A DNA stretch of 19,309 nt, from the IMG/VR virus record IMGVR_UViG_3300029725_000137, positions 1 through 19,309 of that record; one strand, written 5' to 3'. Source of the DNA: a virus. This document shows, in pieces, positions 2,159 to 18,408 of the stretch. How positions within the stretch are numbered: position 1 is the first letter of the stretch; each line of letters opens with the position of its first letter. Both the position numbers and the translations under genes were made by a program. Under the pieces are notes generated by a model. That model did no database searches. It saw only the letters and a program-made list of their open reading frames with translations, and had not been told where the DNA came from.

Positions 2159-2171
2159 TTGGGTTGGTATG

Positions 2172-2783: not shown

Positions 2784-2837
2784 ATTGCGATTGCTGTAAG
2801 TAGGGTCGTAAGTATTAGGCCTGATGCTTGAATGGGT

Positions 2838-3032
2838 TTAATAAACGATGGTTGCCTTGCCGTCGGCCTCCAGCTTTTCAGCTAAAGCCTTCGTAACAGA
2901 TATTCTGGCTTTTGGCAAGAATATGGAGTTTCCTACCCTGGTTTTTTTCAGGATAATGACGTTGGTGTCGATGACGGCGGCCTGCTCCGTCTTCTTGTCC
3001 GGTTCTGTGTTGGAGGTATTTGCTTTGCTCAT
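2838..3032 (-). CDS. Small phage protein, 64 aa
   Basis: ATG at 3032 forms an ATGA overlap with the stop of the upstream gene. Stop is TAA at 2840..2838. Strand and packing match the late operon. Confidence 0.55.
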   Translation of the reverse strand: MSKANTSNTEPDKKTEQAAVIDTNVIILKKTRVGNSIFLPKARISVTKALAEKLEADGKATIVY

Positions 3033-3226
3033 TTGAGTTCAACCAGGTTGAGGGTTTTCAGAGCTTCCGCGACGGGCGAGGGAAGTTCCAGGGTATCGGT
3101 TTTCATGAAGAGGCTGATGACCAGCCCTCCATCCAGTTCTGTTTTCGTGCTGACGACGCGGACGGTCACCTTGTCCTGGTGATCCCCCTGGTCTTTTTGC
3201 TGTTTATTTTTTGGCGTTCTGCTCAT
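3029..3226 (-). CDS. Small phage protein, 65 aa, with a basic N-terminus
   Basis: ATG at 3226 overlaps the 3' end of the upstream gene by 23 nt. It sits in the late operon. Confidence 0.55.
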   Translation of the reverse strand: MSRTPKNKQQKDQGDHQDKVTVRVVSTKTELDGGLVISLFMKTDTLELPSPVAEALKTLNLVELK

Positions 3227-3734
3227 GGAATTCCGTTTTGGTTCGTATGTTGATATTGATCGGGACGCGGTAGTCCACGGTCAAGACGTTCATTTGCCTC
3301 TTCTCTCCGTCGATAATCCCGGAAGAGGCAAAGCGCCCCTTGATCTTGGGCTTCATCATGGCGGGCGCGGGAAACGGAAGTGGATTCCAGTTCCACAGGG
3401 CATGCTCAATCACGTCGCCCACGGCGCGCAAATAGTAGGCCGGCGTCAGGCATTCCTCCGGGAACAGGGCAGCGTTGTGATAGATGGCTACAATAATGAA
3501 ATACTGCCTCCACATGGTAGGTTCCGCCGTCTGCCCGTGTCCGTCCTGGTATTCATCCGCATCCCCGGGACACACCAGCACCACGCCGTTATTCCCCATT
3601 GCAGACATGATGATGTCATTGGCGGCATACTCCGGATCAAAGGGCGCGTCAAAGATGTGGCAGCTCAATTCCTTGCTGCTTTTGAGCCGCTCAATGATGC
3701 GGCAGCTCATGGTCTGGTCAATGGAGGGGATCAT
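3204..3734 (-). CDS. Phage head/neck completion protein, function unassigned
   Basis: I start this gene at MIPSIDQT.. (ATG 3734..3732), which forms an ATGA overlap with the stop of 3731..4396. The longer track ORF (to 3839) would overlap the upstream gene. Confidence 0.65.
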   Translation of the reverse strand: MIPSIDQTMSCRIIERLKSSKELSCHIFDAPFDPEYAANDIIMSAMGNNGVVLVCPGDADEYQDGHGQTAEPTMWRQYFIIVAIYHNAALFPEECLTPAYYLRAVGDVIEHALWNWNPLPFPAPAMMKPKIKGRFASSGIIDGEKRQMNVLTVDYRVPININIRTKTEFHEQNAKK

Positions 3735-4396
3735 GATTCGTTTCCGATTTGGGTGAGGTATGTTTCCGCGGCGCGCTGCGCCATTTGGTCCATCGTCGGC
3801 AGGATGCCAGGAGTAGGAGCAATCGTTACTTCCCGGCACAGGATATAGAGGACGTCTCCTGTTTTCGTTCCTTTGCTGAAAAGCTTGCGGGCCGCTTTCT
3901 TCCCGGTGGAGGACTGGGCTGTCTTGAGAATCAGGACACCGGTTACATTTCCATTCCGTCCTCCATTTTTGGAGGGGATGAATTGCAAGTCCTCTTTGCG
4001 GAAGCCTGCGCTGTAAATGCTTCGGGTCCCTCCATGCCCTCGTGGCGCGTTGATGGTGGGGATGGCGAGGTTCTGAATCGGCTTGCCGGTGACTTCCGAA
4101 GTGCGTCCGGTGGGCCGCAGCGGGCCGCCCAGGTAGCCCTGCGTGCCTATCCAGTGCAGGCCGATGCCGCGCCAGGCAATGGAGACGCTGACGCCTTCGG
4201 CGGTTTCTTCCATGCTGGTGGCGTCCGCCGCGGCGTCGTAGTAGTCCTTGCCCTGCTGGCGCAAGGTTTGCTGAATCATCAGACTGAGGGCAACGCCCGC
4301 CTTGCGGATGGCGGTCTTGTGCAGGGCGGCGGACGGCGCCATGTCGGCAAACGCGCGGTTAATCGCGGATTGGTCGATGTGGACGGTTACAGCCAT
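3731..4396 (-). CDS. Phage virion morphogenesis-type protein, function uncertain
   Basis: I start this gene at MAVTVHIDQSAINRAF.. (ATG 4396..4394), 10 nt overlapping the upstream TAA (4389..4387). The Arg-rich N-terminal extension in the track ORF (to 4573) looks non-coding. Confidence 0.6.
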   Translation of the reverse strand: MAVTVHIDQSAINRAFADMAPSAALHKTAIRKAGVALSLMIQQTLRQQGKDYYDAAADATSMEETAEGVSVSIAWRGIGLHWIGTQGYLGGPLRPTGRTSEVTGKPIQNLAIPTINAPRGHGGTRSIYSAGFRKEDLQFIPSKNGGRNGNVTGVLILKTAQSSTGKKAARKLFSKGTKTGDVLYILCREVTIAPTPGILPTMDQMAQRAAETYLTQIGNES

Positions 4397-5523
4397 TTGA
4401 CGGGTAAAACGTAAGGGGTTGACAGTTCCACATTGAGGGCTCCGGCGACGTCTTCCACTTTCCTGACGTGCCCGGAGGTAATGGGATAGGTGAATTCCCC
4501 CTCTTCCTTTGGGGAAACGGGGATATACTGGCGGGAGGACGCGGCGGCCACGTCTGCGGGCCGGGCGTACCAATCACCTTCCGGCTCGGAAGCCAGACGG
4601 TCCAGCAGGCGGTCGAGGTAAAGTGATGCCAGCGTTCCGGCCACGGCTCCCCCGGCTGCCGCCAGACGGAACGCCTGGGCCTGGCGCAAGGGGATCTCTT
4701 CTGGGAAATCCCCGGACAGGACTTCCGCCAGTTCCGCGTCCGTGTAAGGGCGCGTCCCGTTCGGGTCGGTGTAGGTAAAGGTGGTATTGCGGTCGTTCTC
4801 GGTTTTAACACGCACGGCGTCTTTCAGGATGCGGCGGATCTTCTTTTTATTGGCGTTCGTGATACTTATAGTATTGCTTTCCAGAGTGGCGTTGAAGCTG
4901 GCGGGAGCGAGACGGACGCGGGAAACCTCCAGTCCGGCCGCGCGGGCTTCTTCGGCTCCCACGGGGGCAATGTTCATGCCGGAAAGGTAATCGAAGGGAG
5001 GATAAGGCGTTCCGAAGCGCGAGAGGCGAATCCAGATGTCGGAGGCCGCCAGGGCGTAGCCGACGGTTTCGCCGCGGATGAAACCAGAAGAAACTGCCTC
5101 CGTGGCCTCGTTCTCCAATCCGGTTCTGGCACGGTTCCAGCGTTCAGCCCAGTAGCGCGGGTCTTCCCGGCCCTGGGAACGGTAAAATTTAAAGGCGGCG
5201 GTGTCGTCGTCCTGTGTCCAGTTATACCAGTTCCGGTAGCCGTGCGCCATGGCCGCATTGGTTTCCATGACGACCTGGATACGAAGCCAGGATGACAAAT
5301 CCTGAATGCCGCCCTGCCCCGTTGCCGGCGGTCGGTAGCCCTGCTGGCGCAGGGTTTCGCGGATGGACTGCTGCGCCTCTTCATAGCTCAGGGCGCCGGA
5401 GGCGACCTTCCCCGCCTTTTCCTCAAAGTCGGACAGGATAACGCCGGGCTCCACGCCGGACACGAAAAAGGCGCGTTCGGCGTAGTCGTTGGCGATCATC
5501 TCCATCTGGGCGGCGGTCATCAT
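4387..5523 (-). CDS. Putative minor head / head-morphogenesis protein, weakly Mu F / SPP1 gp7-like
   Basis: 378 aa, with an ATGA overlap to the upstream gene at 5520-5523. The segment ..WLRIQVVMETNAAMAHGYRNWYNW.. resembles the (A)RTE..A...G motif of the Mu F family. That family assignment is from memory and low confidence. Confidence 0.55.
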   Translation of the reverse strand: MMTAAQMEMIANDYAERAFFVSGVEPGVILSDFEEKAGKVASGALSYEEAQQSIRETLRQQGYRPPATGQGGIQDLSSWLRIQVVMETNAAMAHGYRNWYNWTQDDDTAAFKFYRSQGREDPRYWAERWNRARTGLENEATEAVSSGFIRGETVGYALAASDIWIRLSRFGTPYPPFDYLSGMNIAPVGAEEARAAGLEVSRVRLAPASFNATLESNTISITNANKKKIRRILKDAVRVKTENDRNTTFTYTDPNGTRPYTDAELAEVLSGDFPEEIPLRQAQAFRLAAAGGAVAGTLASLYLDRLLDRLASEPEGDWYARPADVAAASSRQYIPVSPKEEGEFTYPITSGHVRKVEDVAGALNVELSTPYVLPVKWL

Positions 5524-5996
5524 CGGTAGGTGCTTCTCATGGGGTTGAACCAGGGGCGCTGAGTGAAGCGCGGCATCATGTAGGCGGGGTCCGCCGGGGC
5601 GGCGCCGTCTACGCTTTCCGGCAGCATTTCGCCTCGTGCATAGCGGGCCAGCATCTCATCGGCCGATTCAGCGGCTTTCTGGCGCGTTTCGGTCAGGTTG
5701 ATCTGGTAGCGCAGGTAAAGCTGCCGGATGATCAGCGGCCACGCCAGGGAGCGCATGCTCTGCGGGATGTCGTACATGCCGCTATTCTGGAGCGATTGCC
5801 GCAGGGCGAGGTTGTTGGCCAGCGCCCCGCGGATGGCCATGCAGACATCGTTGACCGCCTCCATCATGACGTCCCGGTAGTCCAGGCTGCGCAGCTCCCC
5901 GGCTTTCACCAGGGCGTCGCGCTCCGCAGTGTTGAGGCCGAGGAGTCGGTCGGCTTCATCCGTAGTGATGGTGGACCAGGCGGGAAAGGCGGACAT
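5520..5996 (-). CDS. Head-tail connector-position protein, DUF1320 / Mu gp36-like by position and size
   Basis: 158 aa, ATG at 5996, immediately downstream of the capsid gene. In Mu/B3-like head modules this is the usual place for gp36-like proteins. Confidence 0.5.
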   Translation of the reverse strand: MSAFPAWSTITTDEADRLLGLNTAERDALVKAGELRSLDYRDVMMEAVNDVCMAIRGALANNLALRQSLQNSGMYDIPQSMRSLAWPLIIRQLYLRYQINLTETRQKAAESADEMLARYARGEMLPESVDGAAPADPAYMMPRFTQRPWFNPMRSTYR

Positions 5997-6017
5997 GATG
6001 GAGGCGGGTTGGGTGGG

Positions 6018-6941
6018 TTAAGCCGTGGCCGTCGCGTCGATGCGGACGATGGCGGACGGGTTGGTCAGCTTGGTCAGCGAGTAGACGCGGTTGGTTACCA
6101 GCGTCAAAGCGGGCGTCGGCTTGTATTCCGTGATGACTTCGCGGCGGAGCTTGCCGGACAAACCAAACGTCTTGATGGCAGAGGCGTCGAACTGCGTCGG
6201 GGAGTCTTCCTTGTACAGGACATAGACTTCGTTCTCCATGATGGTCTTGGCGTCGCCGGAAGCGTCGCGGTAGGGCATGGCTGCGATGTAAATATCCCTG
6301 ATAGGCCGAATCAGCGCATTGCGGAGCAGGTCTTCGTTGAAGAGGCCGACACTGTTGAATGACACCACCTGTCTGGCAATGGGGTTGGCTCGCAGGAGCT
6401 GCCAGGCGTTGATGCCAAAGACGATGGTGTTAGGCATGTGTCCAGTCGCCGCATTGATGGACAGGATGGCATTATCCAGATCCGTCAGCGGATTCTTCTG
6501 TTCGTTGGCCCAGTCCCCGTAACCGGCTGCGGCAGGCAACTGGCTGGTGATGAGCTTGGCACGTTCATATTCATACGAGGTCACAAACTGTGATTCGATG
6601 AGCTTGTATTCCGCCAGGGTGATAGCCTGCGCCTTTTCGCGGTTGACGCCCAGCAAGGCGTCCGGAATCGGCAAGGTTAAGCCGTACCCCTGAAGGGTGT
6701 CGGTTTCGTTCCTGCCGCGCAGGACGGTCTGGCGGGGAGGTTCGCCCGGTCCCACCTGGATCGGCTGGACCGTAAAGGCAGATTCCGTGTCCCAGACCTT
6801 GTACTGGAAATTGAGGTCGTAAACCGGGACGATCGGCGCAATGCGGCTGATAATGGAGTTCTCTTCGGTGTTTCCGGAACCCGCAGAATAAGCGGTCAGA
6901 ACATCGGTGAACTGGACGGCTGAGCAAAATGGAGTAGCCCT
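6018..6941 (-). CDS. Major capsid protein, lambda gpE-like family, with proposed AGG start
   Basis: The track ORF is 6018..6755, starting at GTG. The same frame is open back to the TAA at 6965..6963. The upstream part reads [AGG]ATPFCSAVQFTDVLTAYSAGSGNTEENSIISRIAPIVPVYDLNFQYKVWDTESAFTVQPIQ.., which looks like genuine capsid N-terminal sequence. No in-frame ATG/GTG/TTG lies in 6756-6962, and there is an in-frame AGG at 6941..6939. This start gives 307 aa versus an implausible 245 aa. The gene sits after the protease and the decoration-position gene. Confidence 0.7.
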   Translation of the reverse strand, partial: RATPFCSAVQFTDVLTAYSAGSGNTEENSIISRIAPIVPVYDLNFQYKVWDTESAFTVQPIQVGPGEPPRQTVLRGRNETDTLQGYGLTLPIPDALLGVNREKAQAITLAEYKLIESQFVTSYEYERAKLITSQLPAAAGYGDWANEQKNPLTDLDNAILSINAATGHMPNTIVFGINAWQLLRANPIARQVVSFNSVGLFNEDLLRNALIRPIRDIYIAAMPYRDASGDAKTIMENEVYVLYKEDSPTQFDASAIKTFGLSGKLRREVITEYKPTPALTLVTNRVYSLTKLTNPSAIVRIDATATA

Positions 6942-6974
6942 TGTTCTTTGTCTTTCTATTGATTAGTGTTGATG

Positions 6975-7406
6975 CTACACAGCTGCGACCTGGTAGGAGG
7001 GGACGAATCCGATTTCCACCATGCCCTGTTCCCACTGGGCGTGGATCACGCGGGCATAGACAGTTTCTCCGCTGGCGGCGGCCTTCCATGCTCCGTTGGC
7101 CGTGATGGTGAGGGGCGTTCCGGCGTTGATCGTGCCCGGCGTGTCGGAAAGAGCTGCCTTGATCAGGCCTGCATACATGCCGACGAGAGCGGCGACGCAG
7201 GTTCCCTGGTTGGGCTGCCCTTGCAGGACTACGCCGAGCAGCTGTGTCTGCGTAGGGATGGTGGACAACGGCGTCCCGATAAACTCGGGGATGTCCGGGT
7301 TGGCGGTCAGCGCCACGACGGTTCCTTCCTGTCCGCACAGGTCAACACCCTCCGGGGTGTTGAAATAGACGATGGCGCTTTTCTGGGTTACATTGAGTGA
7401 TGGCAT
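6975..7406 (-). CDS. Head decoration-position protein, DUF2190-like
   Basis: 143 aa with ATG at 7406 and TAG at 6977..6975. It lies between protease/scaffold and major capsid, the position lambda D occupies. Confidence 0.55.
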   Translation of the reverse strand: MPSLNVTQKSAIVYFNTPEGVDLCGQEGTVVALTANPDIPEFIGTPLSTIPTQTQLLGVVLQGQPNQGTCVAALVGMYAGLIKAALSDTPGTINAGTPLTITANGAWKAAASGETVYARVIHAQWEQGMVEIGFVPSYQVAAV

Positions 7407-7426
7407 TGGTTTGTATCAGGTTGGGG

Positions 7427-8542
7427 TTATCGTTCGGAGGTTACAATGTAGCCTTCTTCGGTGGCTTTCTGGAAAGCGTCGTACCGCTTCATGCCGCCCT
7501 TCATCAATTCGTCCACGCGGTTCCGGAATCCGTCGATGGATTCCTTTTTGCGGAACGGATTGGGCGGCGCCTGGGTGGCACGGCGGTTCAAGGACGTTCT
7601 TCCAACTGGATTGCGGCGGCTTTCGTCAACAACGTCATGCGGCGGCTTTGACTTCGCGGACCGATTGAGAGCCTTGACAAAGGCGCCCAGTGCGGCGGGG
7701 CTTTCCCGGAGAGAGTTTTTCAGCTCTTCCCGGCGTTCTTCCGTAAACTCCTCGCGTTCTTCCTCGTCCAGTGCGTTTTCATACGTACTGACGGCTTCGT
7801 CCACTTCGGCGTTCACGGCATTCTTCTCTCTCTTTTCCAGATCGAGAAGTTCATCCACGCGGCGGAGGATTTCCCTGGACATGTCATCGGTTCCGTCAAA
7901 TTCGACGTCCAATTTATCGAGCAGGGAATCAAACAGAGCCCGCTGGGCTCGGTCCATTTCCTTCGCCGGGTATTCTTCGGCGTTTTCTTTCATCGTTTTG
8001 TCTTGGTTGGTTTCCCCCTCTTCGGGGCTTTTGTTTTCGCCCCCGTCCTTGTCGGGGGAAGTCTGTCTATTGATGAGCGGGCGCTTGCCCTTGATGCGCG
8101 GACGGTTGGTCAACGCGAATCCCGTCAGGCGAGTGGGAGTGTAAACGCCGTCCTCCAAGGTCATGCCGTCCATATACTCCGTAGACGATTGCGTGTACTC
8201 CTTGTCGATAAGCATTTGCAGTCCGCGTGGCGTCCAGTCGATAAAACCGTACAATTCCAGGCTGCCTGACGGATCCCGGTAGGTATCCAGTTTTTTCAGC
8301 CAGCCCAGGGCCCGCGTATCGCGGCTGACGTCATGGCTGAGGTGATCGCCGTCAATCAGCATGCCGGGGCCATCGAAAGTGCGGGAATTGAATTCATCCA
8401 CCATTCTTTGAATGACCTCTTCATCAATGCGAAGGAGCGCGGGTCCTTCCCCGTAGTCAACCTCGTGATCGCCGGATTTCTCGATGTGATACCATCCGTT
8501 CTTCGGATCGCTTAAATCATTGATTTGTTTTGTACTGATCAT
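7427..8542 (-). CDS. Mu-like prophage protein I family head protease fused to an acidic scaffold-like C-terminal half
   Basis: N-terminus ..NGWYHIEKSGDHEVDYGEG..LLRIDEEVIQRMVDEFNS..GMLIDGDHLSHD.. matches the Mu gpI protease family pattern as I recall it. The C-terminal ~190 aa is highly charged and coiled-coil-like (scaffold-like). ATG at 8542 overlaps the portal 3' end by 26 nt. Confidence 0.7.
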   Translation of the reverse strand: MISTKQINDLSDPKNGWYHIEKSGDHEVDYGEGPALLRIDEEVIQRMVDEFNSRTFDGPGMLIDGDHLSHDVSRDTRALGWLKKLDTYRDPSGSLELYGFIDWTPRGLQMLIDKEYTQSSTEYMDGMTLEDGVYTPTRLTGFALTNRPRIKGKRPLINRQTSPDKDGGENKSPEEGETNQDKTMKENAEEYPAKEMDRAQRALFDSLLDKLDVEFDGTDDMSREILRRVDELLDLEKREKNAVNAEVDEAVSTYENALDEEEREEFTEERREELKNSLRESPAALGAFVKALNRSAKSKPPHDVVDESRRNPVGRTSLNRRATQAPPNPFRKKESIDGFRNRVDELMKGGMKRYDAFQKATEEGYIVTSER

Positions 8543-9881
8543 CGTAAAACCCTTTCATCAGCGCATTGTTGATAAGCTCCCTCAATTGTTCAAAAGCGTC
8601 GGGCGGTATACCGTTATCTTCAGCTTCCCGGTTGGATGCTGCCACAGGAGGAGCGGCATCCCGGGTGTCCTCGACGGACATGCCGAGCTTCTCTTCAACT
8701 TCCGTCTTTTCCAACCGCACGCCTCCATCCGCAAGAGCGGCGATTTCTTCCGCCTTCTGCAGCGGCGTCTGGACGGTATCAAAGGTGATCTGGAGTCGGG
8801 CCAGCGGTTCTGCGTCTCCCAGCACAAGAGGATTAACGGCAGTATTAAAGGCTTCCGCCACTTTGCTGCACACAGCGGACACGACGGAATTCCAGCTATC
8901 TGTATGCGCTCCCCCGGCCAGGGTGCCGGATCCCGATTCGTTCAACACAGTCAGAGTGCCGGCCATCACAAAGCGTACCTGATCCTTGTCGGCAAGATTG
9001 ATACGCGAGAGGAAATAGTTTTCATTGATGGAGGATGCCTTGAGGGGTTCCGCCGTACATCCGGGAGGCAGGACGACGGATGCACCTGACTTGAGTTCTT
9101 CGCAGGCGCGCTCAAGTGCGTCCATGACAGCGGCGCTTGCTTCTTTGGGAGCCGTGATGATGACCGGGGCGGACCCGTAGCGGTCCATGTGGTTGTCCCA
9201 GACAATCTTGGCATGGTTGCGCTCAAAGGAGGCTCGGGAGGCAGGAAACAGGATGGGATAGGGATGCTCCATCACCACAAGCGTTTCCTCTTCCACGCTT
9301 TCTCCCGTATCCACGCCAATATGGCATTGTGGGTTAAACTGCCACTCGTTCAGCTCGCCCGGGCGCACCCAATAACGCTGCGGAATAAATTCAAACCTCC
9401 GGCCCCAGGCGTCCTCGATAAATTGCAAATGGGCGTAGCCGTAAAATACCGCGGAAGCGAGTTGCCCAAACGCCGGCTGAAGGCCGTTAATGGAGTTGTA
9501 GAATTCTTCCAGGGCGTTTTTCTGTCTCTGTGCTTCGGGGCTGTCATTGGCGGCGTCAATTTTCCATCCCTGCATGGACACGCTTTCAATCATCCGCGAA
9601 TAGAGCATGCCCAGCATGCCGTCCGAATAGATTACCTCGTCCCAAATGAGCATTTGCCGCGCAAAGGCTCCCCTTCTGGCCTCATTGCGGGCATCAATGA
9701 GGGTTTGCAGGCCCGCCCCCTGGAGAGGATCCCAGTATTCAAACCATTGGGGGCGGCCAGGAAGGCGGCTCCGGTCCGTTAAGGCGCGTCGGGCAAGGTC
9801 TGTCTCAAGCTCCTTGATTCTGGTCTCTTGTTGTGCGACCAGCTTGGGAGCGTTGATGATATTTTTGACGGCGTTTAACCT
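8517..9881 (-). CDS. Portal protein, Mu gp29 / DUF935-like, with proposed AGG start
   Basis: The track ORF is 8517..9653 (ATG). The frame continues open upstream and reads [AGG]LNAVKNIINAPKLVAQQETRIKELETDLARRALTDRSRLPGRPQWFEYWDPLQGAGLQTLIDARNEARRGAFARQ-MLIWDEVIYSDG.., with no in-frame ATG/GTG/TTG. An in-frame AGG lies at 9881..9879, 23 nt downstream of the tRNA 3' end. This start gives 454 aa, a typical portal size. Confidence 0.72.
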   Translation of the reverse strand, partial: RLNAVKNIINAPKLVAQQETRIKELETDLARRALTDRSRLPGRPQWFEYWDPLQGAGLQTLIDARNEARRGAFARQMLIWDEVIYSDGMLGMLYSRMIESVSMQGWKIDAANDSPEAQRQKNALEEFYNSINGLQPAFGQLASAVFYGYAHLQFIEDAWGRRFEFIPQRYWVRPGELNEWQFNPQCHIGVDTGESVEEETLVVMEHPYPILFPASRASFERNHAKIVWDNHMDRYGSAPVIITAPKEASAAVMDALERACEELKSGASVVLPPGCTAEPLKASSINENYFLSRINLADKDQVRFVMAGTLTVLNESGSGTLAGGAHTDSWNSVVSAVCSKVAEAFNTAVNPLVLGDAEPLARLQITFDTVQTPLQKAEEIAALADGGVRLEKTEVEEKLGMSVEDTRDAAPPVAASNREAEDNGIPPDAFEQLRELINNALMKGFYDDQYKTNQ

Positions 9882-9904
9882 GCGACTGAGACGGTGAGAA
9901 ATAT

Positions 9905-9978
9905 TGGTTGCAGGGGGAGGAGTTGAACCTCCGACACGGGGACAGGAACCCCGTATGATACCGTTTCACCACCCTGCG
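9905..9978 (-). tRNA. tRNA with anticodon CCU, formally tRNA-Arg(CCT), carrying initiator-tRNA-type acceptor and anticodon stems
   Basis: 74-nt cloverleaf folded by hand. Acceptor CGCAGGG/CCCTGCA has 6 Watson-Crick pairs plus a C1-A72 mismatch. Then U8 G9, D-stem GUGA/UCAU, D-loop AACGGUA, A26. Anticodon stem is CGGGG/CCCCG and the loop is UUCCUGU, with anticodon CCU corresponding to plus-strand agg at 9944-9946. Variable loop UGUC, T-stem GGAGG/CCUCC, T-loop UUCAACU, discriminator A73, and an encoded CCA. Confidence 0.9.
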
Positions 9979-9994
9979 ATTGAATATACATCAA

Positions 9995-10023
9995 TACATA
10001 TAGATATGTTGATATATTGTCAA
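9995..10023 (-). promoter_or_regulatory. Candidate sigma70-type promoter dedicated to the tRNA
   Basis: On the minus strand, TTGACA (10023..10018) is followed by a 17-nt spacer and TATGTA (10000..9995). This lies in a 47-bp AT-rich, partly palindromic spacer between the terL stop (10026) and the tRNA 5' end (9978). Confidence 0.45.
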
Positions 10024-10025
10024 CC

Positions 10026-11399
10026 CTAATACCTGCCGATGGAACGATTTCTTTTTGGTCTTGTGACATACCAGGCTCCAAGCTCCCTGACCAAGCCGCT
10101 GTGTTTTCGTGCATGCCACGCCATGACAAGAGCGTCGGCCCGGTCGGGAGAACGAACTCCACGCTTTGCCATGTCCTCCTTGCTCTCGATTTTGACACGC
10201 CCGATCGCGTCTGTCTGGACGCGCGGTGCGACCAGCTGTTCGATTGTGTCCTCGTCGATGTCGAGAATGAGCTCTTTTTCCTCGATCGCACGGGCGAGCG
10301 CTCTCCAGGCCTGGGCGCGCAGATTGACAAAGGCCTGCGTATCGTCGGACGGAAAGCCGCCCCGGTAGGAGTGTATCGGGAAGCCCTCGGCCCGGAAGTC
10401 GTCGATGATGGGGAGCCCGAGTCCATCACCGTCGGCAAAGATACTGTCGGCGGGAATGCCAAGCTCGGCGGCTTTGCGCCGGAACCGTCCGCGGGCTCCG
10501 ACGGTGTCGGGGGCTGACCAGTGGTCGGCAATGAAGAAGCGATTGCCCTGCCCGGCCGCAAAGACGTTTTCGTCGCCCCCGGCGGCGAAGTCAAAGCCGC
10601 CGCAGGTCTCCCCGGTGTCCAAAAAGGGAGGCGGGTTGTTGAGCAGCTCCATGATGGCGCGGCGGGAAATGACGGATTGCCCGTCAAGGTCCGTGAATTC
10701 GCCGAGGATGGCCGAGCGGTAGAAGGAGGACTGTTCGCCGTATTCTTTTTTCAGGCGTTCGGCCTTGCCTGGATCGTTGATTTCGATGTGCGGGCAATCC
10801 TCGTATTTAACGCGGATTTTGTAGTAGAGGGATGAATTTTTGTGGAAGCAGTCGTAAAAGGTTCCGGAATCGGCACCCGGCGACGAGGTGATGAACGCGT
10901 TGAAGAGCGTGCAGCGGGAAACAGCGGTGAAGATGGGGTCCGGGATGGTCTTGGCTTCATCGAGGACGTAAAAGACCGGGTCAACGTCGGGCGAGATTTT
11001 CGGGTGCCATCCTTCCGCGCGTCCGGCGTTGTCGGTGGAGAATCCCACGGCAAATCCTCCTTCCGGCGTGCGGATTTCGGTTTTGTTGAATGTCCAGCCG
11101 TCAAAGAAGGGGTTATCCATATAACGGCGAAGCGCGGGAAAGAGCTGTTTTTCTACCTGCATCCACGATGATGACGTGACTGGCACCTGACCCCGAGGAA
11201 AATAGGTAAGGAAACACAGGATTGCCGGCGCAATGGATAGGCTCGTCTTTCCCGATCCGTTCGGAGCAACCATGGCCACGCTTCGGCCTCCCAGCCTCAC
11301 CTTTCCGAGAAGCAACGCCTTGATGGCCTCGATTTGCCAGGGATAAGGATCGAGTCCGAGGATGTGACGGAGGAAGAAGCTGACGGGGAGATGATTCCT
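10026..11399 (-). CDS. terL: Terminase large subunit with proposed AGG start
   Basis: Walker A is APNGSGKT, Walker B-like is VFYVLDEA, and the C-terminal half looks like the nuclease domain (..DFAAGGDENV.., ..ADGDGLG.., ..SPDRADAL..). The track ORF starts at TTG 11315. The frame is open to the TAA at 11408..11406, and the upstream part reads [AGG]NHLPVSFFLRHILGLDPYPWQIEAIKA-LLLGKV... The PYPWQ motif, typical of TerL N-termini, lies upstream of the first canonical start. In-frame AGG at 11399..11397. Confidence 0.8.
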   Translation of the reverse strand, partial: RNHLPVSFFLRHILGLDPYPWQIEAIKALLLGKVRLGGRSVAMVAPNGSGKTSLSIAPAILCFLTYFPRGQVPVTSSSWMQVEKQLFPALRRYMDNPFFDGWTFNKTEIRTPEGGFAVGFSTDNAGRAEGWHPKISPDVDPVFYVLDEAKTIPDPIFTAVSRCTLFNAFITSSPGADSGTFYDCFHKNSSLYYKIRVKYEDCPHIEINDPGKAERLKKEYGEQSSFYRSAILGEFTDLDGQSVISRRAIMELLNNPPPFLDTGETCGGFDFAAGGDENVFAAGQGNRFFIADHWSAPDTVGARGRFRRKAAELGIPADSIFADGDGLGLPIIDDFRAEGFPIHSYRGGFPSDDTQAFVNLRAQAWRALARAIEEKELILDIDEDTIEQLVAPRVQTDAIGRVKIESKEDMAKRGVRSPDRADALVMAWHARKHSGLVRELGAWYVTRPKRNRSIGRY

Positions 11400-11405
11400 G
11401 CTCGG

Positions 11406-11921
11406 TTAAGGGTGGAGTTTGCCGGCAATGGTTTCCAGCGCGGTTTTCTCGTCTTCCTGCAGCTGGGCGAGCTGCTCGGGGTCCAGCGTGATTTTCCGTT
11501 CCAGCGGCGCCCCGGGAACGCCGGCGACGTCCTGGCGGACCCGGTCTCCAAATTTTTCGGGAGCGAAACGGGCAGCGACTTTCAGCCGGGTTTCAATGGC
11601 GAGCTTCTTGGCAGCGACGGAGGCGGATCCGCAGTCGGGGTCGAGGGCAACCTGGGCAGCGGCATCTGACAAAGACTGACACTCGTCGAGCATGGCTTCC
11701 GACTGCGCTTCCCGCGCGCGCTGAATGAGTTTACAAAACTCTTCCCGTTCGTGCCTCCATCTCCAGACAGTTAAAACCTCCGGCATGTGATCGTCCGAGC
11801 AAATGGACTTCATCGTTTCCCCGTTGGCTAAGCGAGAGGCTATCTCGGCAGCTAACGCCTCCGTATAGAGGCTGGGCCGTCCTATTTTCTTGTTGGTGGT
11901 AGGTGATTGCTTCTTTTTCCT
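11406..11921 (-). CDS. terS: Terminase small subunit with proposed AGG start
   Basis: The C-terminal part ..RAREAQSEAMLDE..AAKKLAIETRLKVAARFAPEKFGDRV.. matches a widespread TerS family pattern. The track ORF starts at ATG 11813. The frame is open to the TAG at 11930..11928 and reads [AGG]KKKQSPTTNKKIGRPSLYTEALAAEIASRLANGET-MKSICSDDHMPEVLTVWRW.., the classic HTH N-terminus (GRPS.YT.E.A..I..RLA.GES) of this family. No in-frame ATG/GTG/TTG is present, and there is an in-frame AGG at 11921..11919. Confidence 0.75.
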   Translation of the reverse strand, partial: RKKKQSPTTNKKIGRPSLYTEALAAEIASRLANGETMKSICSDDHMPEVLTVWRWRHEREEFCKLIQRAREAQSEAMLDECQSLSDAAAQVALDPDCGSASVAAKKLAIETRLKVAARFAPEKFGDRVRQDVAGVPGAPLERKITLDPEQLAQLQEDEKTALETIAGKLHP

Positions 11922-11929
11922 GCGGGTCT

Positions 11930-11959
11930 ACTCTAGAGGACAAGTGGCTAACAAATCAA
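11930..11959 (-). promoter_or_regulatory. Weak candidate late-operon promoter
   Basis: On the minus strand, TTGATT (11959..11954) is followed by an 18-nt spacer and TAGAGT (11935..11930). A transcription start there would fall 1-4 nt before the terS AGG, giving a near-leaderless mRNA. The match is weak. Confidence 0.25.
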
Positions 11960-11991
11960 GCACTCTGTTTGTTCATTCCTTTCTGGGGCCA

Positions 11992-12020
11992 TTGACAAAT
12001 CTGACCCTCTCACATATACA
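11992..12020 (+). promoter_or_regulatory. Candidate sigma70-type promoter for the plus-strand accessory block
   Basis: TTGACA (11992-11997), a 17-nt spacer, then TATACA (12015-12020). The GTG of the next ORF is at 12027, so the transcript would be leaderless or nearly so. Confidence 0.45.
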
Positions 12021-12026
12021 GATTTT

Positions 12027-12545
12027 GTGAAAAAGTGTCCTATATGCGGCAAGGATGTTCCGCCGCGCTACGGATCGCGGGAAAGAGTGTACTGCTCCCG
12101 CGCATGTCTCAAGGCACACTATGACGCCGCCTGGGAAACTATCACCTGCCCCGTGTGCGGAAAGGAATTCCGCGCTAAAAAACTCTTTCGGCGGAAACAT
12201 TGCTCTTATCCTTGCGCGAATGCAGCCCAGAAGGGGCGGAAAATCACGTCAGAAGCCTTTCAGGAGGCTTGCAAGCATCGGGGAGTTCCCGGCCCCAGGA
12301 AGCACCCCAGAACAGGGAAATTTGAGACAAATTGCCATGCAAAGATATGGCTGCTGGAATCCCCGGATGGAGAGAAAGTCACGGCTCGGAATCTCAAACT
12401 CTACATGATAGACCGGTACGGCGAAGAAAAGGGGAAAAAGGTCTATAAGCTCCTGGTTTGTGCTGCACAACGCTTCCGTAAATGCGGACATGGCGGCGGC
12501 GCCGGATGGCGGGTACTTGCCGCCCCTGCCGTCCCGAAGGAATAA
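12027..12545 (+). CDS. Tandem zinc-ribbon (FCS/TRASH-like) protein with a C-terminal phage DNA-binding-like tail
   Basis: 172 aa starting at GTG. It has two copies of CPxCGK-x(11-13)-(Y/H)CSxxC: CPICGKDVPPRYGSRERVYCSRAC and CPVCGKEFRAKKLFRRKHCSYPC. The C-terminal ..CHAKIWLLESPDGEKVTARNLKLYM...GWRV resembles tails seen on phage homing-endonuclease-like ORFs. That resemblance is from memory and low confidence. Confidence 0.6.
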   Translation: MKKCPICGKDVPPRYGSRERVYCSRACLKAHYDAAWETITCPVCGKEFRAKKLFRRKHCSYPCANAAQKGRKITSEAFQEACKHRGVPGPRKHPRTGKFETNCHAKIWLLESPDGEKVTARNLKLYMIDRYGEEKGKKVYKLLVCAAQRFRKCGHGGGAGWRVLAAPAVPKE

Positions 12546-12576
12546 AAAAGGGCAGCCCCGAAGAACCGCCCTTTTT
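12544..12576 (+). terminator. Candidate bidirectional-looking intrinsic terminator
   Basis: An A-run (12544-12549) precedes stem GGGCAG (12550-12555) / CCGCCC (12566-12571), which has one mismatch and a 10-nt loop. It is followed by TTTTT (12572-12576), directly after the stop of 12027..12545. Confidence 0.45.
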
Positions 12577-12746
12577 AAGGGAATGAGCGTTTCCGCTCGT
12601 GCTGATCTTGTGATCGTTTTAATCCACAGCCCCGGAGGGCTGACGTGTTCCTAGAAAGAACAAATTACTTCTCTCATATTTTGCGCCAGACCGCAAGCAA
12701 AAACGGAATGACAACTTTTTTCACCTTTTTTCATTTTTTCTCTTGC

Positions 12747-12769
12747 GTTACTATAAATTTTATAGTAAC
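12747..12769. promoter_or_regulatory. Perfect 23-bp palindrome, a candidate operator, in the AT-rich promoter region of the acidic-protein gene
   Basis: GTTACTATAAA-T-TTTATAGTAAC has 11-bp arms, all 11 positions complementary. It contains TATAAA/TATAGT -10-like hexamers and lies 75 bp upstream of ATG 12844. Confidence 0.5.
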
Positions 12770-12843
12770 TTAATTTTGTTGACGGGAGGTAAGGGACCGA
12801 ACGAAGACATAATCCAAACAACAAAACTAGAAAGAACAAGACA

Positions 12844-13167
12844 ATGAACGATAACAAAATCATCACCACGGAAGACGGAGAAGAAATCAACCTGACCGCT
12901 CTTGAACGTGAATTCGGCAGCTACGACTTTGAAGGCAAGACCTATTATGCAGCGCGCCAGATGGAATACACCAACAGGGTTTTCCCTGGCTCCTACGCGG
13001 ACAAATACGAGGACGGCAGCTACATGGAAGAATGGTCTGCTCCTGGCTATGATGCAGAAGGGAACAAGGTTGAAATCTTCATGGCCTTTGAACAAATGAC
13101 GGGCGAAGAAATTGACGGAGAAAACCTCAACTGGACGCAGGACGCTTCCCGCGTTGAAGCTCGCTAA
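12844..13167 (+). CDS. Small, strongly acidic protein (107 aa), function unknown
   Basis: ATG start. By my count there are about 25 D/E versus 9 K/R. It has its own AT-rich upstream region and a downstream hairpin. Confidence 0.65.
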   Translation: MNDNKIITTEDGEEINLTALEREFGSYDFEGKTYYAARQMEYTNRVFPGSYADKYEDGSYMEEWSAPGYDAEGNKVEIFMAFEQMTGEEIDGENLNWTQDASRVEAR

Positions 13168-13176
13168 ATAACCCCC

Positions 13177-13204
13177 AGGGGCGGCAAAGCCGCCCCTCCT
13201 TTCT
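13177..13204 (+). terminator. Candidate terminator or attenuating hairpin
   Basis: GGGGCGGC-AAA-GCCGCCCC (13177-13195) followed by TCCTTTCTC. The U-tract is poor, and the next ATG is only 5 nt further on, so it is probably leaky. Confidence 0.4.
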
Positions 13205-13208
13205 CACT

Positions 13209-14513
13209 ATGACCGCACAAGAATTTATCGACTGGCTTCAAACTGCCAACAATCTTCCAAATCCTACCCAAGCTGTAAAAAGGGCCGCGCAGATGATGCG
13301 GGTGACGGAAGATGTTATTTGGAAATGGTTAAATACTAAAAAACCATACCCCACGCCTGAATACATGCAATTACTCATGGATTTATTGCATGAGAAATAC
13401 CGAGAAAAGAGGTTTTACCGCATTCTTTCTCACGAACAGCGTGAAGAGATGCGGTCCATGTTGGGCAAAAAACCTGATCTGGAAATCGCCGAGCTACTCG
13501 GAATAGCGCGCGTCACGGTCCAGACTGAACGCTATAAATTAGGTATCAAAAAGTATTGCAGCCCTGAAGCAATCCGCATCCAACATGATGAAGAGCTTAT
13601 TGCAGTGCTCGGAAAAATTCCTGACTCGGAGTGTGCCAAGAAGTTTGGATACTCAAATTCCAGAGTAGCCTACCTTAGAAAGAAATTAGGGATTAAGTCA
13701 TATAAGGGGCCGCGTAAACCCCGTCAGCCACGAGACCCAAATAAACCACACAAGAAAAAAGAGTATCCCGAAGAGTTAATTAACATGCTTGGAAAGACCC
13801 CGGATGATGAAATTGCTAAAAAATTCGGTTATTCCAAGGCAGGAATTGCGCTTATTAGAAAAAAGATGGGCATTCCATCATTACCTGATACTAAATTCCC
13901 CAAAATGAAACGCGAAGAAATGCTATCTATGCTTGGAAAATTTCCTGATAGCGAAATTGCTGAAAAGTTTGGAATATCGCTTAATTTTGTAGCGCGGAAC
14001 CGTAGAAAATTAAAAATTGCTCAAGCTCCATACTCCCCCATTAAGGATGCGGACAAGGATATGATTCTTAATTTATTGGGAAGAGTATCAGATTTAAAAA
14101 TTTCAAAAAAAACAGGGTACAGCCCATATGTAATTAAAAAATTTAGAGAACAGAACAAAATTAAGCCTTTCAATAAAAGCATTTTAGAAAGATTTTCACC
14201 GGACCAACGTAAAAAACTCTTATCTATGCTTGGGAAAGTTTATGATAGAGTAATAGCCGAAAAATTTAATATTGATAACGAGGTAGTAAGAAGAATTAGA
14301 CAGAAATTGAATGTTCCGGCATTACGTGAGGAAAAAAGCTTGCAAGAAACAATAGAAAGGGACGAATACATTAAATCCCTGCTGGGCACAATGACTGATA
14401 AAGAAGTCGCTAATAAAACAGGCAAATCAATACAAGTTATCGGAAAAGCAAGGAGAAAATTAAATATCCCGGCGTTTGATACAAGGGGTCGGTCTACAAA
14501 GAAACAATCTTGA
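13209..14513 (+). CDS. Multi-HTH DNA-binding protein with an N-terminal HTH plus 7 tandem GerE / sigma-70-region-4-like repeats
   Basis: 434 aa with 7 repeats of the pattern (E/D)x(M/L)(L/I)xxLGKxPDxEIAxKFGxSxxxVxxxRRKLGI(P/K). Examples are LGKKPDLEIAELLGIARVTVQTERYKLGI, LGKIPDSECAKKFGYSNSRVAYLRKKLGI, LGKTPDDEIAKKFGYSKAGIALIRKKMGI, LGKFPDSEIAEKFGISLNFVARNRRKLKI, LGRVSDLKISKKTGYSPYVIKKFREQNKI, LGKVYDRVIAEKFNIDNEVVRRIRQKLNV and LGTMTDKEVANKTGKSIQVIGKARRKLNI. The period is 48-60 aa. The DNA is visibly AT-richer than the rest of the window. Confidence 0.8.
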   Translation: MTAQEFIDWLQTANNLPNPTQAVKRAAQMMRVTEDVIWKWLNTKKPYPTPEYMQLLMDLLHEKYREKRFYRILSHEQREEMRSMLGKKPDLEIAELLGIARVTVQTERYKLGIKKYCSPEAIRIQHDEELIAVLGKIPDSECAKKFGYSNSRVAYLRKKLGIKSYKGPRKPRQPRDPNKPHKKKEYPEELINMLGKTPDDEIAKKFGYSKAGIALIRKKMGIPSLPDTKFPKMKREEMLSMLGKFPDSEIAEKFGISLNFVARNRRKLKIAQAPYSPIKDADKDMILNLLGRVSDLKISKKTGYSPYVIKKFREQNKIKPFNKSILERFSPDQRKKLLSMLGKVYDRVIAEKFNIDNEVVRRIRQKLNVPALREEKSLQETIERDEYIKSLLGTMTDKEVANKTGKSIQVIGKARRKLNIPAFDTRGRSTKKQS

Positions 14514-14537
14514 TCTTTCCAAGATAAAAAGCGCCCC

Positions 14538-14632
14538 TATACGAGATTCCAGGGGGTATACGAGATTCCAGGGGGTATACGAGATTCCAGGGGGTATACG
14601 AGATTCCAGGGGGTATACGAGATTCCAAGGCT
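14538..14632. repeat. Head-to-tail tandem array of a 19-bp unit, 4 perfect copies plus 1 degenerate copy
   Basis: The unit TATACGAGATTCCAGGGGG occurs at 14538, 14557, 14576 and 14595. A degenerate copy TATACGAGATTCCAAGGCT is at 14614. The array fills the convergent gap between the multi-HTH gene stop (14513) and the loader stop (14631-14633). Confidence 0.95.
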
Positions 14633-15353
14633 ATTTCCTGGGATGGTAGTTGATCTCGCGGTAGGACTGCCACTCGCACGGGATGGCGCCGCCTGTCATG
14701 TGCATCCGGGAAGTAATGGAGGGACCAAGACTCGGCTCGACGTCTTCCCCGATGAGATTGGAAATGACCACAGTAATTTTTCCGTCCTGGTGACGGCTGT
14801 CGATAAGACGGTCAATGGAATATTGAGAAAAATCCGATCTCTTGAGCTCGTGGAATTCGTCAATAACCAAATAGGTAGGACGCTTGAACGCCCTGGCAAT
14901 ATCATTTTCCCGCTTGGACTCCCGCAAATCAAGGCAGTAGTCATACGCTTTGACGTATTTGACGGACCTTCCGAGCCGCACCAGGCCGCGGGCCAGGGAT
15001 GTTGCCATCACAGTTTTGCCAGTGCCGCAGGGCCCATGAAGCGCAATGATTGCTCCGGACTTCCGAGCAAAGTCCGCTAAACGGTCTCTGGCGGCTTTCC
15101 ACGGGCTTTCTGCATCGTTTACCCTATCCAGAGCTAAAACGGCCATTTTGGGGAAGCCAGAGGCCAGCAAGAGGTGAAATTCTTCCTGGGCCTGTTGCAT
15201 GGCTTCCCGCGTGAGCCGTTCCTGCTCCACTTTGGCGTCAAGTTCGGGGTCGTCCGATGCGAGGGCCGAAAGCCTGTCCAGCAGGGCGTCGATAGACCCG
15301 TCTCCAAACATATCCCGCACGTTGTGCAAATTCCGTGATGTGTTAATATCCAT
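14631..15353 (-). CDS. DnaC/IstB-like AAA+ ATPase, a replicative helicase loader
   Basis: Walker A is HGPCGTGKT and Walker B is YLVIDEF. I start the gene at MDINTSRNL (ATG 15353..15351), preceded by GGAG 5 nt upstream. It overlaps the upstream TAA (15345..15343). The track's N-terminal extension overlaps the upstream gene. Confidence 0.8.
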   Translation of the reverse strand: MDINTSRNLHNVRDMFGDGSIDALLDRLSALASDDPELDAKVEQERLTREAMQQAQEEFHLLLASGFPKMAVLALDRVNDAESPWKAARDRLADFARKSGAIIALHGPCGTGKTVMATSLARGLVRLGRSVKYVKAYDYCLDLRESKRENDIARAFKRPTYLVIDEFHELKRSDFSQYSIDRLIDSRHQDGKITVVISNLIGEDVEPSLGPSITSRMHMTGGAIPCEWQSYREINYHPRK

Positions 15354-16104
15354 AAGTTCTCCTTCCTGGTGTGGTTGTTGATGGTGAGGGCGTTCCTCTT
15401 CGGTTTTCGGCATAGCGCAAGGCGTAAGCCAATGCGGCGGCTTGCCAGTTGTTGATGGGGTTCCCCTTGGCATCCACCCATCCGCAAGCCTCTTTATCAG
15501 CGTAGAAAAGCATTGATAATTCGTTGATTTGAGATTCATTGAGAAGCAGACGGCCCCTCAATGCTTCGGCTTGGAGGTAGGCTTTCACTTTGTCGGAATC
15601 CTCCGGCAAAGCTCGTTGCCGGGAATAGGCTGTGTTTTCTCCAATATTATTATTCTCTTCTCTTCTCTTCTCTGGTCGGACATTGTGTCGGACAACGGTC
15701 GGACATGGTGTCGGACTTTTGTCGGACGCCATGTCGGAAACGTTGTCGGATTGGTCTTTCAGAGATCGCCGGATTCGTTTTGCTTCCGCTTCCAAGGCGC
15801 GGGCCTTGGAGGAATTGCCGTTGTGGCGGTCAAAGTTGGGGATTACAAGGGCGCCTTCACGGCCTTGCAACCAGCCAACGGAGACAAGGCCGCGGGCAAA
15901 TCCGGGACAATAAACAACCCGGTCGATGTGTGCATATTTCGTCTTAAGGATTCCGTCTTGAGTATTGGCATCGGCCCACGCCCAAAACCGCCACAGTTTC
16001 CCCAGCACAAAATCAGGGTCATCCATGTGCAGTATTTCCGCCAGCTTCACCACTTCGGGCTTGTCGGGTGTTGTGTGTTCAACTTTTATCCAGTCTCCGG
16101 CCAT
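15343..16104 (-). CDS. Phage replisome organizer / replication initiator-like protein
   Basis: I start the gene at MAGDWIKVEHTTPDKPEVVKLAEIL..GKLWRFWAWAD (ATG 16104..16102). This N-terminal pattern is typical of phage replication-organizer proteins. It lies directly upstream of the DnaC-like loader and contains an internal iteron array. Confidence 0.65.
   Translation of the reverse strand: MAGDWIKVEHTTPDKPEVVKLAEILHMDDPDFVLGKLWRFWAWADANTQDGILKTKYAHIDRVVYCPGFARGLVSVGWLQGREGALVIPNFDRHNGNSSKARALEAEAKRIRRSLKDQSDNVSDMASDKSPTPCPTVVRHNVRPEKRREENNNIGENTAYSRQRALPEDSDKVKAYLQAEALRGRLLLNESQINELSMLFYADKEACGWVDAKGNPINNWQAAALAYALRYAENRRGTPSPSTTTPGRRTYGY
15675..15751. repeat. Seven phased GTCGGA(C) iterons inside the replisome-organizer gene; candidate ori
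   Basis: (T/G)GTCGGAC begins at 15675, 15687, 15698, 15710, 15721, 15733 and 15745, a spacing of 11-12 bp. It is immediately flanked at 15643-15674 by the AT/pyrimidine-rich tract aatattattattctcttctcttctcttctct. Confidence 0.7.
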
Positions 16105-16135
16105 AATCAAAAAAGCGTCAGTTGGGGGTTGTAGT

Positions 16136-16738
16136 TCATAACCATTTGATGGTGCAGTTTCCGCGGTAGCTTTTAATCCAATGGAACCATGCGTATGCAA
16201 TCGCCCCACCTTCGGCCTTGGAAAAATCCCCGTTTTTGGCGCAGGTCCGCCGCTCGCTGAATACCCACACGTCGGAGGGGGGGGCAACGTCGAACAGCCG
16301 ACGACGGGCCTTGCCCTCTAAAAACTGAAGGCGCAGAAGCATCCAGACATTGGCTCCATCCTTGACGCAGGCAAGCGCACGCTCGACAAATTCAAGGGCT
16401 GTGGCGTAGGAAGGATTGGTCATAATATCCACGTCTCCTATCTCGCTACCGTCGAATTCCCACAAGAAATCTTGTACGCAGGAATCAGGACATCCACGGT
16501 CAACAATGTCGGTTGCACAGACTTCATGCCCCCGCTCCCGCAGGACATTGACGATATGACCAGCCCCGCAGGCCGGTTCCCATACACGTTTCCGGAGAGG
16601 AGCACCTGCGTTGAGCAAATCACGCACCATGTCAGGGTGTGTGGCGTAGTAGTCTTCCCGCGGGCGCTCGCCGGAGGCAAGGTAGGATGCGCCCAACGTG
16701 GCACCAAGAGTTCGGTTGTTACCTGTCCAGTCTTTCAT
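16136..16738 (-). CDS. Orphan DNA methyltransferase, N6-adenine or N4-cytosine class
   Basis: I start the gene at MKDWTGNN (ATG 16738..16736), preceded by AAAGGAGGGGGA. Motif I-like is VWEPACGAGH and motif IV-like is IMTNPSY, a variant of (D/N)PP(Y/F). No adjacent restriction enzyme gene is present. Confidence 0.65.
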   Translation of the reverse strand: MKDWTGNNRTLGATLGASYLASGERPREDYYATHPDMVRDLLNAGAPLRKRVWEPACGAGHIVNVLRERGHEVCATDIVDRGCPDSCVQDFLWEFDGSEIGDVDIMTNPSYATALEFVERALACVKDGANVWMLLRLQFLEGKARRRLFDVAPPSDVWVFSERRTCAKNGDFSKAEGGAIAYAWFHWIKSYRGNCTIKWL

Positions 16739-18401: not shown

Positions 18402-18408
18402 TTTAATT

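Follow-up and report, generated by a model that had tools for sequence, protein, structure and literature searches.

To our knowledge, bacterial and viral start codons are taken to be AUG, GUG and UUG, rarely AUU or CUG, all of them read by a single initiator tRNA with the anticodon CAU. In crAss-like and other gut phages, phage-encoded suppressor tRNAs are reported to recode stop codons, as a means of limiting the translation of late genes. Initiators with other anticodons are described from engineered orthogonal systems (the amber initiator with CUA, i-tRNA-AAC for GUU and the anticodon panels of mRNA display), in which exchanging the anticodon of an initiator moves the start of translation to the matching non-AUG codon, usually with the amino acid set by the new anticodon (10.1101/2021.05.25.445580; PMC11744186). 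The stretch analysed here (IMG/VR record IMGVR_UViG_3300029725_000137, positions 1 to 19,309, 19,309 nt in all and hereafter the window) is part of a temperate phage of the Akkermansia muciniphila phage group and encodes a tRNA with the anticodon CCU, which appears to be a phage-encoded second initiator, with AGG as the start codon of at least six late genes; we put the probability of this reading at about 0.85. If so, it would be the first natural example known to us of a virus supplying both a start codon of its own and the tRNA that decodes it. Searches of the full-text literature (open-access papers and bioRxiv; an account in a subscription journal is possible) found no natural non-CAU initiator tRNA or AGG start system, and the matches were limited to engineered non-AUG initiator tRNAs, a proposal that altered tRNA loops evade nucleases, and canonical initiators. 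Unlike the engineered initiators, which are laboratory constructs made in E. coli or in vitro, the CCU tRNA is natural, is found in dozens of phage genomes and would serve several essential genes. As with the suppressor tRNAs, a phage tRNA would give a codon a role that it lacks in the uninfected host, with late structural genes affected, but the CCU tRNA would act on a start codon in initiation and not on stop codons in elongation.

The gene is the only tRNA called by ARAGORN in the window (anticodon cct) and was labelled tRNA-Arg(cct), as an earlier sequence-only reading of the window had expected of automated tools; it scored 54.2 bits (E=2.2e-9) against Rfam RF00005, for which the gathering score is 29. 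From 5' to 3' the RNA reads CGCAGGG UG GUGA AACGGUA UCAU A CGGGG UUCCUGU CCCCG UGUC GGAGG UUCAACU CCUCC CCCUGCA A CCA. This folds as a standard cloverleaf, in which the acceptor stem (CGCAGGG/CCCUGCA) has C1 facing A72 and is followed by A73 and an encoded CCA, the D-stem GUGA/UCAU encloses a 7-nt D-loop (AACGGUA) that puts U, not A, at position 20, the anticodon stem CGGGG/CCCCG carries the loop UUCCUGU with an unusual U32, G37 and U38, and a 4-nt variable loop is followed by the T-arm GGAGG-UUCAACU-CCUCC. The features that the sequence-only reading had listed (C1xA72, A73, the encoded CCA, the pairs G29:C41, G30:C40 and G31:C39, the loop UUCCUGU, G37 and U11:A24) are thus all present. The acceptor stem differs from what we take to be that of E. 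coli tRNAfMet only at 4:69 (A:U here, G:C there). Shared with bacterial and phage initiator tRNAfMet are the 1x72 mismatch, which is established in E. coli as an EF-Tu anti-determinant, the pairs G2:C71 and C3:G70, A73-CCA, and a lower anticodon stem that is rich in G:C and in which 30:40 never varies. The acceptor elements G2:C71, C3:G70 and A73 are of the formylase type, being the determinants described alongside a 1:72 mismatch (PMC5389676). The CCU tRNA differs from tRNAfMet in its anticodon, which prevents it from reading AUG and makes charging with methionine very unlikely, in its anticodon loop (U32/G37/U38 against C32/A37/A38) and in position 11:24, which is U:A.

The tRNA occurs at the same position in about 45 IMG/VR contigs and in a GenBank phage, which together give 16 distinct sequences. 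Twenty of the 21 cloverleaf pairs are paired in every variant, with compensatory double changes at eight (4:69, 7:66, 27:43, 29:41, 31:39, 50:64, 51:63 and 52:62), and 0/500 shuffles reached the observed percentage of paired cells, the double-change counts or the covariation score. The only position never paired is 1:72, and because it is C.A in 16/16 variants while the other acceptor pairs covary, the mismatch is more than chance. The CCU anticodon, G2, C3 and A73-CCA are invariant, so that the CAU of bacterial initiators is absent from every family member; C3:G70 is found in 16/16 variants, G2:C71 in 15/16 (G.U in one) and G37 in 15/16. Of the features whose retention in homologues had been proposed as a check, C1xA72 and the three G:C pairs of the anticodon stem, the mismatch is kept throughout; the three pairs, although all present in the window, are not invariant in the family, since two variant groups have A:U at 29:41 and two have U.G at 31:39, and only 30:40 is constant. 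Natural initiators are reported to depart from the G:C rule as au/GC/GC and GC/GC/gu, with the middle pair kept (PMC5389676); the family departs from it at the same two pairs, but with the third, U31.G39, in the reverse orientation. Two unusual positions lie in the elbow region, namely C55 in most family members instead of the near-universal U55 (tRNA position 55, window 9926, alignment column 53) and G19 replaced by A, U or C in three variants (tRNA position 19, window 9961, alignment column 18). The usual contacts between D-loop and T-loop are not conserved, which could matter for start-codon proofreading; initiation factor 3 (IF3) is reported to touch the elbow of the initiator tRNA (PMC9723500).

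Outside the Akkermansia group, the closest BLAST matches in phage genomes are tRNA-Met(CAU) genes, either annotated or detectable as such, and those of Citrobacter phage Ci1, Mesorhizobium phage vB_MseS-P1 and Streptomyces phage CeilingFan share the compact 7-nt D-loop and 4-nt variable loop of the CCU tRNA. Compared by eye, the vB_MseS-P1 tRNA has A1xA72 and is the same as the window tRNA at acceptor positions 2-7, the Ci1 tRNA has U1xC72 and UCAUACGGGGUUCAUAACCC where the window tRNA has UCAUACGGGGUUCCUGUCCC, and the CeilingFan tRNA (gene 178) has U1xC72 and the same D-arm. The D-arm GTGAAACGGTATCA was rejected as an initiator signature in its own right, being generic and present also on phage Gln, Lys, Asn and Thr tRNAs. 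Within this scaffold only the 1x72 mismatch tells the classes apart (11/13 CAU and 13/13 CCU tRNAs, against 1/26 of the Gln, Lys, Asn and Thr tRNAs), and among 310 unique tRNAs from unrelated phage contigs the mismatch was seen in 17/32 with CAU versus 8/266 with other anticodons. Because the mismatch concentrates in CAU and CCU tRNAs, this comparison identifies the body of the CCU tRNA as that of a phage initiator-type tRNA, and one substitution, at position 35, separates CAU from CCU.

Some further tRNA genes came to light in these searches. The initiator-type tRNA-Met of vB_MseS-P1 (L076 3000-3074; PP232116.1 6210-6284), which has U29:A41, is unannotated and lies within a coding sequence annotated as 'transcriptional repressor'. 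In three unrelated phage contigs (L149, L175 and L186), tRNA-Gln(UUG) genes seem to be mismatched at 1:72 (U1xU72), and an unrelated short phage contig (IMGVR_UViG_3300034375_000708; L187 4055-4126) carries a CCU tRNA with G37 and U1xC72 but no encoded CCA.

The codon to which this tRNA would correspond was found at the head of six late genes, TerS, TerL, portal, major capsid protein (MCP), gp216 and tail fibre (Table 1). In a stop-to-stop frame scan, the open portal frame extended 104 codons upstream from its first ATG, with no ATG, GTG or TTG on the way. At each site AGG was counted in distinct relatives with the flanking sequence included, up to 26 per site; the portal AGG is present in 25/26 relatives, the one exception being ATG. 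In the alignment of the portal upstream region (29 distinct relatives), an invariant C-AGG is followed in every sequence by exactly 76 sense codons to a conserved ATG, while the spacer from the tRNA is 15, 16, 20, 22 or 23 nt long in relatives and therefore holds no conserved upstream frame. Diversity at the three codon positions was 1.13/0.40/2.56 in codons 0-14 and 0.59/0.26/3.30 in codons 15-29; the coding signature begins at the first codon after the AGG. Between this AGG and the ATG no canonical start is conserved, and in the window and two relatives (L046 and L051) that interval contains no canonical start whatever. An ATT that lies in frame seven codons before the AGG was rejected as a start, since spacer indels shift its frame in many relatives.

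The other five sites behave in the same way. AGG is found at the TerL site in 26/26 relatives, preceded by a variable spacer of 5-6 nt with a 1-nt indel after the TerS stop, because of which read-through from TerS into TerL was rejected, and at the TerS site in 23/23, where both a frame-preserving 6-nt indel and the helix-turn-helix segment GRPSLYTE lie upstream of the first ATG. It is likewise found at the MCP site in 18/18 relatives (in the full-gene set, 30/31, with L068 having ATG instead), downstream of an indel-containing spacer; at the gp216 site in 11/11, again with an indel in the spacer, the first GTG of the window being GTA, GTT or GTC elsewhere; and at the fibre site in 7/7, after a terminator-like hairpin (2158-2141), a U-run and an indel-containing spacer. 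The fibre and gp216 sites rest on 7 and 11 distinct sequences, respectively, and the cross-relative analysis covers the late genes. At all six genes the invariant in-frame AGG marks the switch from a divergent spacer with frame-breaking indels to variation dominated by third positions, whereas ten internal AGG codons of the same genes, taken as a control, were kept in 9% of relatives on average and none was invariant. No conserved ATG, GTG or TTG start was found for the six genes among the aligned relatives; conserved ATG starts were seen in other late genes, namely the protease at 8542 and those at 7406, 5996 and 5523. A Shine-Dalgarno sequence was found at none of the six AGG sites, and the same is true of several ATG-start late genes and of the starts in a related phage (L192, see below).

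Table 1. Position of the CCU tRNA, of the genes with putative AGG starts and of associated elements (window coordinates unless another locus is named).
Feature	Position	Strand	Putative AGG start or remark	Basis
Initiator-type tRNA, anticodon CCU	9905..9978	minus		ARAGORN; Rfam; covariation; nearest relatives
Small terminase (TerS), 171 aa	11406..11921	minus	AGG 11921-11919	
Large terminase (TerL), 457 aa	10026..11399	minus	AGG 11399-11397, 6 nt past TerS stop; 10026-11315 as callable with a canonical start	
Spacer from tRNA CCA to portal start	9882..9904	minus	pyrimidine-rich	
Portal, 454 aa	8517..9881	minus	AGG 9881-9879; callable start ATG 9653, 76 codons downstream	
Major capsid protein (MCP), 307 aa	6018..6941	minus	AGG 6941-6939; in-frame TAA upstream at 6965-6963	
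gp216, late gene of unknown function, 216 aa	2172..2822	minus	AGG 2822-2820	
Tail fibre, collagen-like repeats, 705 aa	1..2118	minus	AGG 2118-2116	Collagen Pfam match
Promoter-like TTGACA-17-TATGTA	10023-9995	minus	directly past TerL stop, before tRNA	consensus scan
Promoter-like TCAACA-18-TATATT	10012-9983	minus		consensus scan
Promoter-like TTGATT-18-TAGAGT (TATAAT or TATGAT in relatives)	11930..11959	minus		alignment; below consensus-scan threshold
Prophage integration site, tRNA-Ser(GGA)	L190 9775-9864		directly upstream of integrase	

Profile searches gave longer matches when translation was started at the AGG. TerS matched Pfam Sf6_terminase over 1-105 of 106 positions (99 bits) from the AGG and over 20-105 (77 bits) from the ATG, and phrog_1482 over 3-124 versus 34-124, while the MCP matched phrog_1005 over 14-274 (70 bits) from the AGG and over 144-274 (42 bits) from the GTG. 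This N-terminal lengthening of the matches indicates that what lies between each AGG and the first canonical codon truly encodes the N-terminus of the protein. A search with the AGG-extended portal returned essentially the same protein called at 378, 397, 414, 421 and 454-493 aa. The portal protein has been deposited publicly at seven or more different lengths, and its entries of 482-493 aa (P0001 and P0007; for example 'AKMU_P330' of A. muciniphila) begin with MVKRYHAGFLSP, which is the translated tRNA gene.

A related phage without the tRNA (P0037, loci L192/L193; portal 62% identical, DNA 43.5% G+C) allowed five genes to be compared, its TerS homologue falling off the contig end, and all five start canonically, with ATG or TTG, at or no more than two codons from the AGG positions. 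In global alignments its portal, MCP, gp216 and fibre starts aligned to AGG position 1; the L192 MCP is also 307 aa long, with M opposite R at position 1, the gp216 and fibre homologues have ATG at the aligned position, and TerL (459 aa versus 457) has ATG two codons upstream of the aligned AGG. Among relatives that keep the tRNA, P0013 (L191) has AGG at TerS, TerL, gp203 and fibre and ATG exactly at the AGG position of the portal, and L068, the most divergent of them, keeps AGG at the portal but has ATG at the MCP site, as well as an ATG that lies one codon downstream of the TerL site. AGG and ATG thus interchange at these exact positions, multi-gene AGG use was seen only in phages with the tRNA, and since the tRNA-less relative has no AGG starts in its five comparable genes, tRNA and AGG starts co-occur. 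The suggestion of the sequence-only reading that an initiator scaffold with CCU would pair with AGG gains support from the initiator-type relatives, from the six putative AGG starts and from the ATG and TTG starts of the tRNA-less phage.

The same comparison bears on a different explanation of the AGG starts, namely that the host initiator tRNA reads them inefficiently as near-cognates and that the phage tRNA has another job, such as replacing a host tRNA destroyed by an anticodon nuclease. AGG is indeed one position away from AUG, but the tRNA-less relative has no AGG starts in any of the five available homologous genes, and a weak start would be odd for a major capsid protein. IF3, moreover, blocks near-cognate starts and allows only Watson-Crick pairing at the first two codon positions (PMC11744186). 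The unusual U32, G37 and U38 would suit a tRNA of the kind proposed to evade tRNA-targeting defences by an altered anticodon loop (PMC10264068); we nevertheless consider this explanation very unlikely.

The CCU tRNA could also be an ordinary elongator tRNA-Arg(CCU) that boosts AGG decoding, its initiator-like features being leftovers of ancestry or the product of neutral drift. With elongators of the argW type it shares the anticodon and the automated label, and U11:A24 is elongator-like. It lacks, however, the paired 1:72 position, A20 and A37 of such tRNAs; A37 is expected beside an anticodon that reads a codon starting with A, A20 is the second bacterial arginine identity element after C35, and the mismatch retained in every variant, a known EF-Tu anti-determinant, is one mutation from repair. 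Codon usage was compared with a small host sample (7 Pfam-confirmed genes flanking a prophage, 2651 codons). As a sense codon AGG stands at 15.1 per 1000 in the phage's early genes (18% of Arg codons), yet it is not rare in the host flank (10.2 per 1000, 15%) and occurs at 4.5 per 1000 (8%) in the late genes. Supplementation of internal AGG codons by the CCU tRNA is not supported by these figures, because the late genes use internal AGG less than the host sample does. An elongator would, in addition, leave six conserved genes without a start, and we hold it to be less probable still. Internal AGG in the late genes stands at less than half of the host-sample (L190 1-9770) or early-gene frequency, which could reflect selection against internal initiation once AGG had become a start codon.

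Hardly credible is the third alternative, that the genes start at the first downstream ATG, GTG or TTG, as public gene calls have it (378 aa for the portal), and that the conserved upstream stretches act as regulatory RNA or DNA and are not translated, since these stretches vary mainly at third codon positions with a frame-preserving 6-nt indel, match the N-terminal parts of family profiles and align residue by residue with the N-termini of ATG-started homologues, while the supposed 'starts' further downstream are internal Leu or Val codons specific to particular lineages.

On the reading of the CCU tRNA as a second initiator, the gene would have been derived from an initiator-type tRNA-Met, of the kind found in many phages, by the change at position 35. 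It would be transcribed within the late operon, as the first element of a transcript running into the portal gene, and after processing and charging the tRNA would enter the ribosomal P site and pair with the AGG at the head of the six late genes. By analogy with engineered initiators, which start at the codon complementary to their changed anticodon, it should read AGG in that site. C35 and U36 dominate recognition by arginyl-tRNA synthetase, and methionyl-tRNA synthetase needs CAU; as C35 and U36 are present, the attached amino acid would most likely be arginine. A fourth pair, of G37 with C at -1, is conceivable, given that initiation in E. coli is measurably higher when the mRNA base at -1 is complementary to tRNA position 37 (PMC10018350) and that C precedes five of the six AGGs. 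It is likely that the Akkermansia phage family possesses a natural orthogonal initiation system in which AGG serves as a start codon for packaging, capsid and tail-fibre genes. Their proteins would start with a residue other than methionine, probably arginine, and would need the phage tRNA, which would act as a translational licence for making virions and possibly as a bypass of an attacked or limiting host initiator. Our best guess at its purpose is that late-protein synthesis is tied to a phage product, or made independent of the host initiator tRNA; the candidates are the licensing of virion genes, independence from a toxin-targetable host initiator tRNA, and a linkage that penalises gene exchange.

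Promoter-like elements precede the tRNA. The TTGACA hexamer of the first element between TerL and the tRNA (Table 1) is conserved in Akkermansia phage DTMo-2021a, and the gap between TerL and portal in the tRNA-less relative holds TTGACA-17-TATGTT. The portal transcript probably begins with the tRNA, whose 3' processing would leave a U/C-rich leader of 15-23 nt. Upstream of TerS, the promoter-like element ends 8 nt before the AGG, from which we infer that the TerS mRNA is leaderless or nearly so, if the putative promoter is real. An AT-rich near-palindrome, ATATATCAACATATCTATATGTATTGATGTATAT, at 9983-10023 between the TerL stop and the tRNA, overlaps the promoter-like hexamers and may be an operator.

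Several points weigh against the reading of the CCU tRNA as an initiator for AGG. U11:A24 is elongator-like and present in 16/16 variants, where A11:U24 in the D-stem is the paradigm of the E. coli initiator. Charging with arginine is uncertain because A20 is absent, and with U20 in its place charging may be weak or with another amino acid. Formylation is likewise uncertain, since the acceptor determinants are present, yet basic amino acids are poor formylase substrates, and arginine may be one of them, as lysine is in the E. coli literature. The MCP site has A at -1, and in the L032 group of phages, where the tRNA carries A37, the base at -1 is nevertheless C, because of which covariation of G37 with C(-1) is unsupported and the four-base-pair idea is kept as a hypothesis. 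The related CCU tRNA of L187 sits among ordinary genes, all those visible there having a Shine-Dalgarno sequence and ATG, and as a second, independent case that contig is uninformative. A simple timing-switch model is weakened by the location of the tRNA gene within the operon that it would license, and all of the evidence comes from comparative sequence analysis.

If the reading is true, a second initiator tRNA supplied by a virus can add a start codon in nature, as so far only engineering has done, and gene finders get the most important genes in such phages wrong. It would also suggest that phage gene control or the evasion of defences has a new, additional layer at the initiation step, comparable to stop-codon recoding, and would provide synthetic biology with a natural orthogonal pair of initiator and start codon, in a bacterium of medical interest.

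As to the genomic setting, Pfam and PHROG searches identified, all on the minus strand, TerS, TerL, the tRNA, a Mu-type portal, a Mu-like protease/scaffold, the major capsid protein and the collagen-repeat tail fibre, with replication genes located further along from the late genes. The closest GenBank phage is DTMo-2021a (78% identity; host A. muciniphila NBRC 114322); six-frame protein comparison with it was noisy, all frames being alike at 78% nucleotide identity, and only rows for real genes were used. The phage carries a tyrosine integrase, and a search of genome contigs with this integrase led to one A. muciniphila locus (L190), where the prophage adjoins tRNA-Ser(GGA) and from which the host flank for codon usage was taken. 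An origin of the CCU tRNA as an att-site hybrid was rejected, since it sits mid-genome, between the TerL and portal genes, and the real attB is the tRNA-Ser(GGA) beside the integrase. No match to the CCU tRNA was found in E. coli genomes, nor in genome contigs when searched with a 30-mer that took in the variable T-stem.

Two other features of the window stood out. A protein of 434 aa with several helix-turn-helix motifs is encoded at 13209-14513 on the plus strand, opposite to nearly everything else, within an island of low G+C (0.38-0.47 versus about 0.55 elsewhere) that looks like a recently acquired insert. At 3204-4358 and 3731-4573 on the minus strand, an open frame of 384 codons has no canonical start for 173 codons and overlaps a neighbouring gene in another frame, which could reflect a programmed frameshift or simply overlapping calls.

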